Assembly (NCBI GenBank): GCA_024691475.1 | Contig: JAILNP010000026.1 | Location: 1,669 to 65,668 of the forward strand | DNA from: Eggerthellaceae bacterium | GTDB lineage: Bacteria > Actinomycetota > Coriobacteriia > Coriobacteriales > Eggerthellaceae | Reading direction: 5' to 3' | Length of the DNA stretch: 64,000 nt | Shown: positions 35,513-40,374 of the stretch, piece after piece | Layout: each line of letters starts with the position of its first letter | Position numbering within the stretch: position 1 is the stretch's first letter | Translations under genes and position numbers: made by a program | The notes under the pieces: generated by a model | What the model was told of the DNA's origin: nothing | What the model saw: only the letters and a program-made list of their open reading frames with translations | Databases searched by the model: none

Positions 35513-35642
35513 ACGTTTTTCCGGAAAAACGTCCGCACCCCCATTTGGCATGATTTGCAGGCTGAATATCGCCTGAGTCTTTTGCGAACTGGGAAAACGT
35601 TCATGCGCTTGGATTGGCTTCGTCGTTTTTCCGGAAAAACGA
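35513..35642. repeat. two perfect 20-bp palindromes sharing the core CGTTTTTCCGGAAAAACG, 110 bp apart
   Basis: ACGTTTTTCCGGAAAAACGT (35513-35532), TCGTTTTTCCGGAAAAACGA (35623-35642), half-site GGGAAAACGT (35591-35600). Confidence 0.9.
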
Positions 35643-35787
35643 GACGACGGTTTTTTCGTTGCCGTATCGCTTCTTTGCATCTATTTCATTTCCTTGATAT
35701 TTGTCTATCTTTGCGTTTTCGTATTCGTCTGCGCGCGGGAACGGGTATCGTGACTGAGTGAGGTCGGGTTTGTTATGGGGGAGTTTC

Positions 35788-37110
35788 ATGTCTCGTTCGT
35801 GGTTTCGGGGTAAGAGATTTGGCGTTCAAGGTCGCCTGATTCTCCATCTTGCTCTCGTTATAGTCGTCCTTTCCGCGGCTGGCATGGCGGTGGCCTTCCA
35901 GCAAAGCCGAAACCAGGCCTACGATTCTGCTACGGAAAAGGCTACTGCGCTTGCCGACCAGATGGAGGCCGTTTGGAATTACGTGGAGACGCATCAAGAT
36001 GCCATTTCTGCCGATGCATCTCAAGGGTCTTCCTCCAGTGGCTATATATGCATCATCTCGGTCAAATCGGTTGCTGCGAATTTCAGCGATGTCTCTACGA
36101 GCTCGATTCGTTATACGTCGCTGCGTCCTCGCAACGTTCTTGACGAGCCCGATTCGTTCGAGCGCGAAGCTATGGAGCAGTTTGCAGCTAACCCCCTACT
36201 TGCATCGTATGGGGCCATTGATTCGTCTACGGGTGAAGAGCTGTATCGATATATGAGACCCGTTCGTATCGAACAGTCGTGTCTGGGATGCCATGGTGAA
36301 CCGGAAGGCGAGCGTGATGCGCTTGGCTATGCGAAAGAAGGCTATGCAATAGGTGATTTGGCGGGTGCCTTGAGCATTAGTGAAGCCATGGATGTGTACT
36401 ACGGAGAGTCGGAGGGGCAGTTTGCCGGTTGGCTTATCATCTCGTTTGCTTGCCTGATCGTGGCAGTTGTGGCCATGTTTGCGATAGTGAAAAAAGTCGT
36501 GCTGAAGCCCGTATCTGCCATGTCGAAGGCGACGAAACGGTTTTCCGAAGGCGAGACGTCGTATCGCGTCGAAGTGCCGCGGCGCAACGATGAGGTGGCT
36601 TCCCTCGCTCGCGATTTCAATGGAATGGCGGACGAAATCGAAGATCTCTATTCCGGTTTGGAAAAGCGCGTTGAGGAGCGCACGGTTGAATTGGAGCGCA
36701 TAAACGCATCTCTTTCCGACGCTCTTGCTGCCGAACGGGAAGATAAAACGCGAGCCTTGGAACGACTTAAAGCGGAACGAGAGGAAATGTCTCGTCGGGT
36801 GTTCGAGCCGTTCAGCGTTGGCGATTTTGTTTTCGATCGAGCCAAGTACGCGGTGAGCAAGCGTGGGCAGGCAGTTCCCCTAACGCCCAAGGAATTCAGT
36901 ATCGTATTTGCGCTCGCCTCACGTGCAGGCGAGGTCGTTTCTCAGCAGGAATTGGTGCGAGAAGCGTGGGGCGAGGAGTATAGCGTCGAAATGGTGGGCC
37001 TTGCAGTGTACGTGCGACGCATACGCAAGAAGATCGAAGATGACCCTGCTCATCCAACGGTGATACTTACTATCTGGGGCGAGGGCTACACGTTCGCTGT
37101 ACATGATTAA
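35788..37110 (+). CDS. heme-c (DUF3365-like) sensor - TM - HAMP - OmpR-type wHTH fusion; no kinase or receiver domain
   Basis: TM1; RYTSLRPRN...PDSFE...YRYMRPVRIEQSCLGCHG...GDLAGALSI; TM2; HAMP (DEVASLARDFNGMA); coiled coil; LTPKEFSIVFALA...VYVRRIRKKIEDDPAHPTVILTIWGEGY. Confidence 0.85.
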   Translation: MSRSWFRGKRFGVQGRLILHLALVIVVLSAAGMAVAFQQSRNQAYDSATEKATALADQMEAVWNYVETHQDAISADASQGSSSSGYICIISVKSVAANFSDVSTSSIRYTSLRPRNVLDEPDSFEREAMEQFAANPLLASYGAIDSSTGEELYRYMRPVRIEQSCLGCHGEPEGERDALGYAKEGYAIGDLAGALSISEAMDVYYGESEGQFAGWLIISFACLIVAVVAMFAIVKKVVLKPVSAMSKATKRFSEGETSYRVEVPRRNDEVASLARDFNGMADEIEDLYSGLEKRVEERTVELERINASLSDALAAEREDKTRALERLKAEREEMSRRVFEPFSVGDFVFDRAKYAVSKRGQAVPLTPKEFSIVFALASRAGEVVSQQELVREAWGEEYSVEMVGLAVYVRRIRKKIEDDPAHPTVILTIWGEGYTFAVHD

Positions 37111-37253
37111 CAAGTGTCAAGCTTTCTCAATCTCCTGTTTATGGCTTCGTTTCGAAGTGGGGGATAGGGTTGTTTCGGTTGGCTCCAGGGTGGACGATGT
37201 GCGGGGTTCGCTATCCATCGGAGTCGAGGATGCCTTAGGAGAAGGGAGATAGA

Positions 37254-38576
37254 ATGCACATGAGCAAAAAGAGCACCGTTGTCGCTACCGTGGCTCTTAT
37301 CGCCACTTTGGCGGTGGCTCTGGTTGTTGCTGGATGCGGCAATGGTCCGCGTTCGCGTTCGACGAGTGTTGGGGCGGATACCACAAGCGAAATGAAGACG
37401 ATGGCGGAGTATGCTGAGGAATTTCCGCATGAATATCAGTCGAGCCAGCAGACGCGTGTCAATGCAAAGGGCTTCACTATTGGTCATACTGTTTCGAACT
37501 TGCGGGATATCTGCGAGCGGCCCGTTATGCGCGATGTGAACGGGGACATCGAATGGAATGCCGATGGAACCATGAGTGTGTTCACGAGCGAATATGATGA
37601 GGAAACGGGCCAGTATATCGTGCCCGAACTTTCTGATGAGCAGCTTGCGACGCTCAATCTGAAGTCCGGATGCATTTCCTGCAAGAGTTCCAAGTTTAAT
37701 GAAATCTATGCTCAGCAGGGTGCCGCTGCATACGGAAATGTGTACAACGGGGAAGCGCGTAGCATAGTCAATGACGAGTACTGGGATTGCGCTATGTGTC
37801 ACAATGGCACGCCTTCAGCCGCTACGGTATCGCCTCAGCTTGTGTATTTTCAGGCGCTGGGCGAGGGGCTTGCCGACAAGCTCGACCCTAAGATGGCGGT
37901 ATGCGCGCAATGCCATAACAGCTACGATTACCGAAGCAGCATCAAGACTGAAGAAGATTTGGAAACGTTCAAGCCGTATCGCTACGGCAATGACGTTGAT
38001 GCCGTCTTCAAGAGCGCCTATGAGGATGGCGTTAACTTCGCCGACAACGATCTTGGCCTTCCGGAGAGCTATGTAGTGCATGCCAATATCGAAGGGTACA
38101 TGGGCACGACGCATTACCAGATGGGCGTAACGTGCGTAGACTGCCATATGCCCAAGACGACGGATGCGGAAACGGGCAAGTCGTATCGTAGCCATTTCAG
38201 CGCAAACAGTCCGCTTGAGAGCGAGGACTCTCTTAATTACTGCCTGACGTGCCACAAGAGCCAGGGCATCGAGAGCACGGAGGCTATGGTCGATTTTGTG
38301 CGTGCCAAGGAAAGCGCCTTCGCGTCTGATTTGGAGACGCTTAAGGCGGATATCGATAGCTATGGAACCGACCTCTCGAATGCCATCGCCTCGGGGTCTA
38401 TGAGCGAGGATGCGATTTCCCAGGCCAAGGAGGATTACGCGCGCGCAACGTGGTATTACCAGGTAATGATAACTGGTCCGTACGAAAGTGCTGGCAGCCA
38501 GATTGCCATGGTTGATTCCAGTGGGCTGCTTGCAAAGGCTCATGCATCCATCGACGAGGGCAGGGGCCTGATCTAG
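37254..38576 (+). CDS. NrfA-like pentaheme cytochrome c552 lipoprotein (divergent)
   Basis: Lipobox VAGC; heme motifs CISCK, CAMCH, CAQCH, CVDCH, CLTCH in NrfA order. Confidence 0.82.
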   Translation: MHMSKKSTVVATVALIATLAVALVVAGCGNGPRSRSTSVGADTTSEMKTMAEYAEEFPHEYQSSQQTRVNAKGFTIGHTVSNLRDICERPVMRDVNGDIEWNADGTMSVFTSEYDEETGQYIVPELSDEQLATLNLKSGCISCKSSKFNEIYAQQGAAAYGNVYNGEARSIVNDEYWDCAMCHNGTPSAATVSPQLVYFQALGEGLADKLDPKMAVCAQCHNSYDYRSSIKTEEDLETFKPYRYGNDVDAVFKSAYEDGVNFADNDLGLPESYVVHANIEGYMGTTHYQMGVTCVDCHMPKTTDAETGKSYRSHFSANSPLESEDSLNYCLTCHKSQGIESTEAMVDFVRAKESAFASDLETLKADIDSYGTDLSNAIASGSMSEDAISQAKEDYARATWYYQVMITGPYESAGSQIAMVDSSGLLAKAHASIDEGRGLI

Positions 38577-38637
38577 AACGTTGACGGCTTTCCCGCAAAG
38601 CCGTAGAGGCTCTGCCTTTATCGCATGCCCCAAACGA

Positions 38638-38694: not shown

Positions 38695-40374
38695 CTACGG
38701 CAGGATGAAGCTCAGAATGCCGGACTGCAGGAACACCAGGCAGCAGAGCACTACCAGGAAGCCCACGCTCCAGGGCAGAACGCTCTTCATGATGTCGGCT
38801 TCGCGCTCGTCGGTGGCAACGGCGGCGATGGCCAGCGACTGCGGGCTGATCATCTTGCCCACGACGCCACCCATGGTGTTGGCAGCCAGGAACAGGTCGG
38901 GCGTAACGTTCGCCAGGGCCGGGTTCGCCTGGGCTGCAGAGTACTGCAGGCTCGAGAACAGGGCGTTTGCGCTCGTATCGCTGCCCGTAACGGCGGTGCC
39001 AACCCAGCCGAGCAGGGGAGAGATGAATGCGAATGCGGGGCCAGCGCCTGCCAGGAACTCGCCGATGCTGATGGTCTGGCCGCTGAAGTTCATCACGTAG
39101 GCCAGCGACAGAACCAGCACGATGGTAAGGGCGGAGAAGCGCATGCGATAGCACGTCTTGCCCAGTTCCTGCACGGCTGCGCCCATTGACATCTGGTAGC
39201 GGCCCTTTTCGTTGAAGATCGTGTAGATAAGAGCCGAAATCATGCCAGCAACGAGCAGCATGGTGCCGGGCGTGGAGAGCAGGTTGAGGGTGAACGTGGT
39301 GCCCGGGTCTTTGCCGGCAGCGGAAAGGATGGTGCCGCCCGAAATGACGGGCCAGGCGATCTTGATGTCGGTGGCAGAGAGCAGCGAGGGAATGCCCAGC
39401 TTGCAGATGCCGAATACCAGAACGACAACGATGTAGGGAACGAGTGCCATGAAGATGCGGGTGCCGTTCAGCTCGCTTGCGGCTTCTGCCGTTACGGGCG
39501 GCAGACCGAAGTCCTTGCGCACTGCTTCGACGCCACGGGGCTTCCAGAAGCGCATGAACGCCACGAGCGCTGCCATGGACACGAGTGCGGCTACGACGTC
39601 GGTGAGCTCGTAGGCGAAGTGATTGGAGCACCACCACTGCGTGAGGGCGAAGGAGCCACCCACGACCATGGAGGGAACCCAGCATTCGCGAGCGCCGCGC
39701 TTGCCATCGAGGATGATGACGAGCAGCAGCGGTACGAACAGTGCGAACAGGGGAGCCTGATAGCCCACGATGGCGGCAACGTGCTGGGCGGTAGCGCTTG
39801 CAACGGAAGCATCGCCGCCGGCGACCATGTTGCCAGCCGTGGTGATGGGCGTTGCCACGGCGCCGTACGCAACGGGAGCCGTGTTGGCCAGCATGACGGC
39901 CAGGGCGGCACGCTTGGGCTTTACGCCCAGGGCCAGAATCATGGTTGCCGTAATGGCGATGGGAGCGCCGAAGCCAGCCAGGGCTTCCAGCAGGCCACCA
40001 AAGCTGAAGGCAATGAGCATGGCCTGGATGCGGATGTCGCCGCCGCCAACCTTGTCGAAGAACCTGCGCAGGTCCTCGCTGCGGCCCGAGCGGACCGTAA
40101 CCTCGTAGAACCAAACGGCAAGAAGAATGATGTATACGATGGGGAATGCGCCGAACGCAGCACCTTGCGTTGCGGAGATGAGAGCGTATCCAACGGGCAT
40201 CTGGAATGCCACGACGGCTACGATGAGCGCGGCGACCAACGCCACGGCGGCCGAGATGTGCGCCTTTGCCTTCACGCCAATGAGCATGACGAAAAACGTG
40301 AGCAGGGGCACGCAGGCCACGAGGGCGGAAAGCCCCAGATTGCCTGCAACCGGATCGGTTAACGCTTGAAACAT
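38695..40374 (-). CDS. lctP: L-lactate permease
   Basis: FGGLLEALAGFGAP, ANTAPVAYGAVATP, VTGSDTSANALF, GKMISPQSLAIA. Confidence 0.92.
   Translation of the reverse strand: MFQALTDPVAGNLGLSALVACVPLLTFFVMLIGVKAKAHISAAVALVAALIVAVVAFQMPVGYALISATQGAAFGAFPIVYIILLAVWFYEVTVRSGRSEDLRRFFDKVGGGDIRIQAMLIAFSFGGLLEALAGFGAPIAITATMILALGVKPKRAALAVMLANTAPVAYGAVATPITTAGNMVAGGDASVASATAQHVAAIVGYQAPLFALFVPLLLVIILDGKRGARECWVPSMVVGGSFALTQWWCSNHFAYELTDVVAALVSMAALVAFMRFWKPRGVEAVRKDFGLPPVTAEAASELNGTRIFMALVPYIVVVLVFGICKLGIPSLLSATDIKIAWPVISGGTILSAAGKDPGTTFTLNLLSTPGTMLLVAGMISALIYTIFNEKGRYQMSMGAAVQELGKTCYRMRFSALTIVLVLSLAYVMNFSGQTISIGEFLAGAGPAFAFISPLLGWVGTAVTGSDTSANALFSSLQYSAAQANPALANVTPDLFLAANTMGGVVGKMISPQSLAIAAVATDEREADIMKSVLPWSVGFLVVLCCLVFLQSGILSFILP

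Follow-up and report, generated by a model that had tools for sequence, protein, structure and literature searches.

Extracytoplasmic heme sensors of the Tll0287-like family (PF11845, the former DUF3365) were renamed sCache_heme by Deshpande et al. (bioRxiv 10.64898/2026.02.01.703092), who list HAMP, methyl-accepting chemotaxis protein (MCP), kinase, GGDEF/EAL and cyclase outputs, leave a DNA-binding output unmentioned and report the family to be rare in Actinomycetota. When linked to HAMP, such receptors signal across the membrane upon binding of nitric oxide (NO), and the CHH NO receptor of Pseudomonas azotoformans combines two transmembrane (TM) segments, a periplasmic c-heme Cache domain and a cytoplasmic HAMP domain in a chain that has no kinase domain (bioRxiv 10.64898/2026.02.01.703092; 10.64898/2026.05.25.727664). 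Membrane-tethered OmpR-type winged helices that answer to an extracytoplasmic sensor without phosphorylation are known from ToxR, CadC and TcpP (PMC5936718), and the Coriobacteriia possess 10-12-TM LuxR activators whose membrane sensor lies N-terminal and whose DNA-binding domain lies C-terminal, and which control an adjacent reductase gene (PMC9734109). Here we analyse 64,000 nucleotides of an Eggerthellaceae bacterium (assembly GCA_024691475.1, contig JAILNP010000026.1, positions 1,669 to 65,668; hereafter the window), in which a gene on the + strand (35788-37110) encodes a 440-residue protein that leads from an sCache_heme domain via HAMP and a signalling helix (S-helix) straight to an OmpR/PhoB-type winged helix-turn-helix (wHTH) domain. 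This protein is probably a functional, membrane-integrated one-component regulator that works without phosphorylation and activates the adjacent gene, which encodes an NrfA-like pentaheme lipoprotein.

The regulator occupies a single uninterrupted reading frame in the list of open reading frames (ORFs), starting with an ATG at 35788 that is preceded by GGGGGAG-N4 and is the start used in the orthologs as well; a GTG at 35758 also lies in the open frame and is not required as a start. Hydropathy places a first TM segment or signal anchor (TM1) at residues 17-37 (35836-35898), with R3, R7, K9, R10 and R16 in front of it, and a second (TM2) at residues 213-235 (36424-36492), and since Arg/Lys clusters, the mark of the cytoplasmic side, precede TM1 and follow TM2, the heme domain between them faces outward. 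This extracytoplasmic domain (residues 42-198; 35911-36381) matches PF11845 with E = 2.8e-32 and 112.6 bits against a cut-off of 24.1. Directly after TM2 comes HAMP (PF00672, residues 237-286; 36496-36645; E = 4.7e-12, 46.5 bits against 25) with its hallmarks, the conserved Pro in AS1 (P241) and the Glu before AS2 (E269), both invariant in the alignment. The adjoining S-helix (residues 287-337; 36646-36798), delimited by alignment with the kinase HK_L072 (see below), P0018 and P0019 and by the AlphaFold2 (AF2) model, carries the ERT signature (residues 297-299, in LEKRVEERTVEL) and satisfies the published S-helix description of a 40-50 residue coiled coil with ERT that sits between sensor and output (PMC1592074). 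A short linker (VFEP) then leads into the wHTH (residues 342-440; linker and domain together 36799-37107), which matches Trans_reg_C (PF00486) over residues 360-436 with E = 5.8e-23 and 81.2 bits, and whose best matches in the Protein Data Bank (PDB) are the DNA-binding domains of VicR/WalR (E = 1e-18). The AF2 model (mean predicted local distance difference test score, pLDDT, 72.7) renders the Cache-like sensor with confidence (pLDDT 80-94), joins TM2 to HAMP AS1 in a helix spanning residues 202-253, draws one continuous helix from 269 to 337 and, after a low-confidence linker (334-344), places the wHTH beta-strands. Pfam, hydropathy and AF2 thereby bear out, element by element, the order that a sequence-only reading of the window had proposed: TM, DUF3365-like domain with CLGCH, TM, HAMP, coiled coil and OmpR wHTH in one frame. 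The same reading had seen no H-box, HATPase or receiver, and this holds too: in the Pfam scan of the 440-residue product neither HisKA nor HATPase_c nor Response_reg came up at a threshold as lax as E <= 1, the NCBIfam models for OmpR-family regulators begin to match no earlier than about model position 106 and those for kinases cover the TM2-HAMP part alone. In the alignment the regulator departs from the kinase sequence just before SH(D/E)LRTPL, so that it has no histidine-kinase DHp H-box.

Set against the described systems, the window protein shares with CHH the two TM segments, the c-heme Cache domain and the HAMP domain in a kinase-less chain; CHH, however, has no output domain, docks a Ser/Thr kinase and lacks the axial Cys, whereas the window protein has its own wHTH, retains a Cys at residue 88 and has no kinase gene nearby, its neighbours being dxr, the NrfA-like gene and a lactate permease gene in place of the adjacent Ser/Thr kinase gene of the CHH type. 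The DNA-binding domain of CadC is a weak PDB match to the window wHTH (5ju7, E = 6.8e-5), but the order of parts in ToxR, CadC and TcpP is reversed (N-terminal DNA-binding domain, one TM segment, C-terminal sensor) and they have neither HAMP nor S-helix nor heme, so that a protein with two TM segments, HAMP and a C-terminal wHTH falls outside that group. The LuxR activators come from the same bacterial class, but pair a polytopic sensor with a LuxR-type HTH (PF00196) and are devoid of Cache, heme, HAMP and S-helix, and with two TM segments and an OmpR-type wHTH the window protein is not one of them; DadR, HcdR and CadR of Eggerthella lenta are genetically proven activators of adjacent reductase genes (PMC9734109). 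ArnR and ArnR1 of Sulfolobus (PMC6396743) are likewise one-component membrane regulators that combine an HTH with a putative HAMP, but they are archaeal, with an N-terminal HTH, C-terminal TM helices and cytoplasmic sensing without heme. Links from an S-helix to an HTH were seen at low frequency as early as 2006 (PMC1592074). All modules are thus known, as are membrane one-component regulators, and the candidate new class put forward by the sequence-only reading is too strong a label, given the proven Coriobacteriia membrane regulators with a C-terminal DNA-binding domain and the known S-helix-HTH links. Four features appear to be undescribed in the searchable literature, and are very rare among sequences: a c-heme Cache domain wired via HAMP and S-helix straight to an OmpR-type winged helix, its clean descent from a cognate pair, its independent recurrence and its packaging with the target gene.

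The closest relatives of all are histidine kinase systems. PF11845 occurs in 84 of the 401 sampled Coriobacteriia species genomes, in up to 8 copies per genome, and the frames that carry it in this sample are almost always 550-650 residues long, that is, histidine kinases. When loci of the ancestral type were located via the NrfA-like protein, a Coriobacteriaceae metagenome-assembled genome (MAG; SIG39, locus L072) was found to encode an NrfA-like protein (46% identity), a 587-residue sCache_heme-HAMP-DHp-ATPase kinase (HK_L072) and an OmpR-type regulator, and the same order of NrfA-like gene, histidine kinase (HK) and response regulator (RR), here with HAMP-less kinases, recurs in Adlercreutzia wanghongyangiae (L071), in an Eggerthellaceae genome (L073) and in genome G046 (L055). 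Intact pairs were therefore present in the homologous loci where the sequence-only reading had proposed to look for them. The L072-type systems share with the window protein the sensor, TM2, HAMP and S-helix, a partner wHTH and the NrfA-like neighbour, but possess a DHp domain with H-box, an ATPase domain and a separate receiver, and their gene order (NrfA-like, HK, RR) differs from that of the window (regulator, NrfA-like). Residues 10-336 of the window protein are 40% identical to the L072 kinase and its wHTH is 61% identical to that of the L072 regulator (36-50% for other regulators), both halves being closest to the two L072 proteins. In a maximum-likelihood tree of the sensor domain the four fusion sequences form one clade (100/98) that is sister to P0018, P0019 and HK_L072 (99/99). 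The joint can be followed from the kinase (...LEQLKDETEYKDRLFASLSHDLRTPL) through the fusion (...LERLKAEREEMSRRVFEPFSVGDFVFD) to the regulator (...HIQSFLRRERQASRMREEKQNVGTLKLDRFEFD): the S-helix is entire up to the residue preceding the H-box, the receiver is lost and the inter-domain linker is shorter than that of the regulator, while the length of the helix is equal in three fusion lineages, including four residues that are absent from the kinases. The fusion is derived from a cognate kinase/regulator pair that lay beside the same cytochrome gene.

Such a joining has taken place repeatedly. A 384-residue protein present on 10 contigs (P0023) consists of sCache_heme, TM2 and winged helix without HAMP, and its gene lies directly upstream of an NrfA-like gene. 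Its sensor nests within the HAMP-less kinase clade that includes the L073, L055 and L071 kinases (100/99), its winged helix is closest to the regulators of those same three loci, and its joint comes after a degenerate H-box (KSDFLAVMSHELRTPL -> KSRIITAAVQELRSRPL), in which SHELRTPL has become VQELRSRPL and the phospho-accepting His is replaced by Gln. The tree position of P0023 and its different joint rule out a single origin of all kinase-less forms, and its sequence marks it as a second, independent fusion. In genome G054 (locus L053, contig G054:C1, 6889-7821), a 310-residue ORF downstream of the NrfA-like gene retains TM1, half of an sCache_heme domain (no CxxCH), beta4 to alpha5 of a receiver and a winged helix, evidently a dead, decayed kinase-regulator deletion fusion. 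With P0023, the window fusion and the G054 ORF, kinase-regulator deletions are seen to recur, two of the products having been retained.

A word-indexed search of 5.8 billion proteins and an exhaustive HMMER search of 1.84 billion cluster representatives were used to recover orthologs. The former returned two relatives, both full-length and both with all three Pfam domains. One (P0001, 96% identity), labelled Denitrobacterium detoxificans (MAG), is found on at least 7 independent contigs, at a syntenic locus that runs, as in the window, from dxr through the fusion gene to the NrfA-like and lactate permease genes; the other (P0002, 439 residues, 58% identity) resides in the complete genome of Slackia heliotrinireducens between different flanks. 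HMMER gave P0002 as the only full-length match and otherwise fragments of a third, metagenomic lineage, namely a sensor (P0021, 53%) and a HAMP-helix-wHTH part (P0017, 57%), which prove to be one frame split by a single in-frame TAG on three contigs (loci L068/L069). This codon (984-986 in L068, and also in L069) replaces the TGG for the Trp that opens TM2 in the orthologs, and a GTG just after it in L068 could start a soluble HAMP-S-helix-wHTH protein; the variant may be either a young pseudogene or a signal-blind form. Among the 401 sampled Coriobacteriia species genomes the full-length fusion is present only in that of the window, and a search with residues 230-440 for further proteins joining HAMP to Trans_reg_C, with any sensor, yielded none beyond the orthologs. 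The complete Slackia genome and the seven or more P0001 contigs rule out an assembly or frameshift artefact, and P0001, P0002 and the third lineage rule out a singleton.

Comparison of the window genes with the D. detoxificans MAG (P0001) locus by the Nei-Gojobori method gave, for the whole regulator gene, a nonsynonymous rate (dN) of 0.021, a synonymous rate (dS) of 0.30 and a dN/dS of 0.07. All segments contribute to this low ratio, with dN/dS values of 0.08 for the sensor, 0.04 for TM2-HAMP, 0.08 for the coiled coil and 0 for the winged helix (dN 0, dS 0.18), and the two control genes, the neighbouring NrfA-like gene and dxr, yielded 0.11 and 0.04. Between the window and Slackia the synonymous sites are saturated, yet the proteins are 58% identical along their full length. 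The regulator is under strong purifying selection. The sequence-only reading had named a singleton without purifying selection as the finding that would speak against it; because the fusion is no singleton and the selection on it is strong, that is not what the locus displays.

The presumed target gene (37254-38576, +) encodes an NrfA-like lipoprotein (PF02335, 111 bits) with one CxxCK and four CxxCH motifs and the lipobox LVVAGC, and it is the next gene after the fusion in all four fusion lineages. The same genome encodes a canonical NrfA on contig C102 (453-1988, -; 511 residues, PF02335 207 bits, CITCK) with an NrfH-like tetraheme gene downstream of it (C102, 1-422, -), so that the enzyme in the window represents a second, divergent paralogue. 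Further NapC/NrfH-type genes lie on contigs C112 and C114. An identification of the NrfA-like gene with the Denitrobacterium nitroalkane reductase is unsupported, because a complete genome of the same genus has no such cassette.

Between the two genes, a block of about 42 nt (TTAACAAGTGTCAAGCTTTCTCAATCTCCTGTTTATGGCTTC; 37107-37148, +) that begins inside the stop codon of the regulator is the sole part of the spacer that can be aligned among the window, the D. detoxificans MAG, Slackia (TTAACAAACTTCAATATATTTCAATACGCTGTTTATAGCTTC) and L068 (TTAACAGAAATCAAGGAATATCCAGCTGCTGTTTATAGCATT), and three lineages with saturated synonymous sites retain this footprint. It contains a TCAA-N6-TCAA direct repeat of 10-bp period (37117-37130) followed by a TAT(A/G)GC element, and the combined motif occurs nowhere else in the genome. 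Direct repeats at this spacing are what OmpR-type domains use. The conserved footprint therefore argues for a shared cis element, a candidate operator or promoter of the cytochrome gene, to which, we infer, the regulator binds. In front of the NrfA-like genes of L072, L071 and L073 no such block motif was found, and in L053 a similar TTAACAA...GCAAT-N7-GCAAT precedes the NrfA-like gene. Upstream of the regulator gene, a 13-mer (CCTTGATATTTGT; 35692-35704, +) is identical in Slackia (alignment A4), and read on the opposite strand (ACAAATATCAAGG) it is similar to the first half of the block downstream; we put it forward, purely as a hypothesis, as a candidate autoregulatory site. A sigma-70 scan of the intergenic regions gave nothing convincing on the + strand.

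What the sensor may perceive can be narrowed by its heme site. The CLGCH motif for heme c attachment (C165, C168 and H169; 36280-36294, +) is invariant in alignments A1 and A2, and the source genome has cytochrome c biogenesis genes (two matches to PF01578). A profile of the sensor domain matches the solved structure of Tll0287 (5b82) with E = 8.3e-16 and puts Cys88 (36049-36051, +) in one column with Cys68, the axial thiolate ligand of the Tll0287 heme in that structure; Cys88 is the predicted distal ligand of the window heme and is nearly invariant across the Eggerthellaceae kinase relatives in the alignment. A HAMP-linked sCache_heme member that lacks this Cys binds NO tightly, whereas Cys-ligated stand-alone members are redox proteins (bioRxiv 10.64898/2026.02.01.703092). 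The window protein has retained the axial Cys of Tll0287, which the NO sensor reported in 2026 lacks, one reason why the sequence-only reading is upheld only in part, and the regulator appears to unite the signalling architecture with a heme site of the Cys-ligated type. A His/Cys-ligated heme suggests that the signal is either redox state or NO, with redox-dependent ligand switching and displacement of the thiolate by NO both plausible. Nitrate, which is reduced to ammonia, and nitro compounds serve the hosts in respiration (PMC4777734), which makes signals related to N-oxides attractive candidates.

We propose the following course of events. The extracytoplasmic single-Cache c-type heme, with His169 as proximal and Cys88 as distal ligand as in Tll0287, would sense an external signal, either its own redox state or a small ligand such as NO or another species derived from N-oxides. 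The resulting conformational change would travel via TM2 to a dimeric HAMP and on through the S-helix coiled coil of about 50 residues, as in the parent histidine kinases, except that the helix ends, after a linker of 4-8 residues, in an OmpR/PhoB-type winged helix instead of DHp and ATPase domains. The coiled coil would thereby substitute for the phosphorylated receiver dimer by fixing both the spacing and the orientation of the DNA-binding domains, which in the permissive state would both settle on the TCAA-N6-TCAA repeats at the regulator's own stop codon and activate the gene for the NrfA-like pentaheme lipoprotein, possibly together with autoregulation. In its entirety, the proposition that HAMP and S-helix gate the geometry of two winged helices, so that a change at an extracellular His/Cys-ligated heme c is turned into transcription of the cytochrome gene without phosphotransfer, and that this arrangement has arisen twice or more, through different joints, next to members of one enzyme family, has in our estimate an even chance of being right. 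What we infer comprises heme loading, the ligand, coupling without phosphorylation, the identity of the operator and the sign of the regulation (activation, not repression). The core of the sequence-only reading, a conserved membrane protein without kinase or receiver that is tied genetically to the cytochrome gene behind it, stands firm; the mechanical coupling via HAMP and the signal (redox, NO or nitrite) that it also invoked are putative.

Several observations weigh against a regulator of this kind. A shallow alignment leaves the wHTH poorly modelled by AF2 (pLDDT < 55). OmpR-type domains bind direct repeats head-to-tail and a parallel coiled coil is symmetric, so that the short linker would have to permit this asymmetry. 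The ACAA-N3-TCAA core occurs at chance frequency genome-wide, with 21 copies against about 25 expected, and no regulon can be claimed. The TAG in L068/L069 implies that this lineage, at least, can do without the regulator or is losing it, and the complete genome of the same genus (G384) is without the cassette, having 47 unrelated bases in its place. The last two points, along with the decayed deletion fusion of G054 and the real origin from a kinase/regulator pair, would also fit an inert remnant, in which an in-frame deletion joined the two genes and the product is non-functional or being lost. This account is nevertheless very improbable, as a dN/dS of 0.07 with constraint on every segment, full-length conservation at 58% identity despite saturated synonymous sites, a helix of equal length in three lineages, the conserved linkage to the target gene and non-coding footprint and a second, independent fusion with the same gene partner all contradict it. 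The in-frame deletion that the sequence-only reading had offered as its alternative is accordingly upheld by L072, the tree and the joint as the origin of the gene, and not as the making of a dead product, since the product has been retained.

Two further schemes accept a functional protein and differ in how the signal would reach the DNA. The membrane form could be inactive until cleavage near TM2 frees a soluble, DNA-binding HAMP-S-helix-wHTH dimer, and L068 could indeed make such a fragment from the GTG that follows its TAG, which would mean that the fragment is tolerated; but no cleavage motif or partner protease is seen in the cassette, HAMP and the S-helix with its ERT show the same strict conservation as in kinases that signal by conformation, and the ToxR/CadC and 12-TM LuxR regulators act without release (PMC5936718, PMC9734109), which leaves proteolytic release unlikely. 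We give the same low standing to an unlinked Ser/Thr or other kinase that docks on HAMP and phosphorylates the regulator, with the modification controlling DNA binding. CHH receptors do bind a Ser/Thr kinase encoded in their operon via HAMP, and NO enhances threonine phosphorylation of HAMP (10.64898/2026.05.25.727664), but these receptors lack any built-in output domain, which the window protein has, and in four lineages no kinase gene lies in or beside the 3-kb cassette. Least probable, and hardly credible to us, is a constitutive tethered activator whose heme serves redox chemistry or electron transfer to the NrfA-like enzyme and whose wHTH merely provides basal, cis-acting expression. The cassette has no gene for an NrfH-type donor, and the axial Cys is kept as in the stand-alone, redox-type proteins of the Tll0287 kind and of P. 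putida, which are weak NO binders; however, among many bona fide sCache_heme histidine kinases of Eggerthellaceae, proteins that do act as sensors, this Cys hardly varies, and a passive tether would have no need of a HAMP and an ERT S-helix so strictly conserved.

If the window protein is the signal-gated one-component regulator that we favour, the locus amounts to a natural experiment on how HAMP and S-helix signals are decoded, as the same sensor-HAMP-helix unit drives a kinase in the sister proteins and a DNA-binding domain here; fusion and sister kinases can be compared residue by residue, and helix length and register are conserved among the fusions. With two independent joints and one decayed attempt it also exemplifies a repeatable route from two-component to one-component signalling across the membrane, and it would extend the outputs of heme-Cache sensors to direct DNA binding, in Actinomycetota. 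A single-chain sensor-regulator with operator and target in a 3-kb cassette is an attractive biosensor chassis, and the regulator could point to the substrates of the divergent NrfA-like enzymes in rumen and gut Coriobacteriia.

The cassette itself spans 3.0 kb (35620-38613), from the region upstream of the regulator gene through that gene to the cytochrome gene, with a GC content of 53.3% against 60% in the flanks. It is replaced in G384, whose flanks align with those of the window at 94.6-96.5%, and in Slackia the regulator-cytochrome pair is set between unrelated genes. The two genes can be regarded as a self-contained accessory unit. An 18-bp palindrome (CGTTTTTCCGGAAAAACG) occurs upstream of the regulator gene in two perfect copies 110 bp apart (35514-35531 and 35624-35641), the only perfect copies in the 2.15-Mb genome; copy 1 lies in DNA common to the cassette-less congener and copy 2 at the left edge of the cassette, and the pair may represent operators for another regulator or a recombination scar. 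Convergent with the cassette is the L-lactate permease gene (38695-40374, -; PF02652, E = 2.9e-112). Lactate is among the electron donors reported for Denitrobacterium.

Related arrangements are found elsewhere in the family. Eggerthellaceae encode receiver-less OmpR-type regulators of 354-383 residues (P0166-P0169 and P0006) that join a SAM-methyltransferase domain to Trans_reg_C and whose winged helix is 53-59% identical to that of the window protein, and P0171 combines Trans_reg_C with DUF4118. At locus L054 (G124:C1, 7767-10167, -), an sCache_heme-HAMP kinase and an OmpR-type regulator with a winged helix 50% identical to that of the window adjoin a Tat-signal molybdopterin oxidoreductase and a multiheme protein, and in Eggerthellaceae kinases of the sCache_heme family seem to be employed with several types of respiratory reductase.

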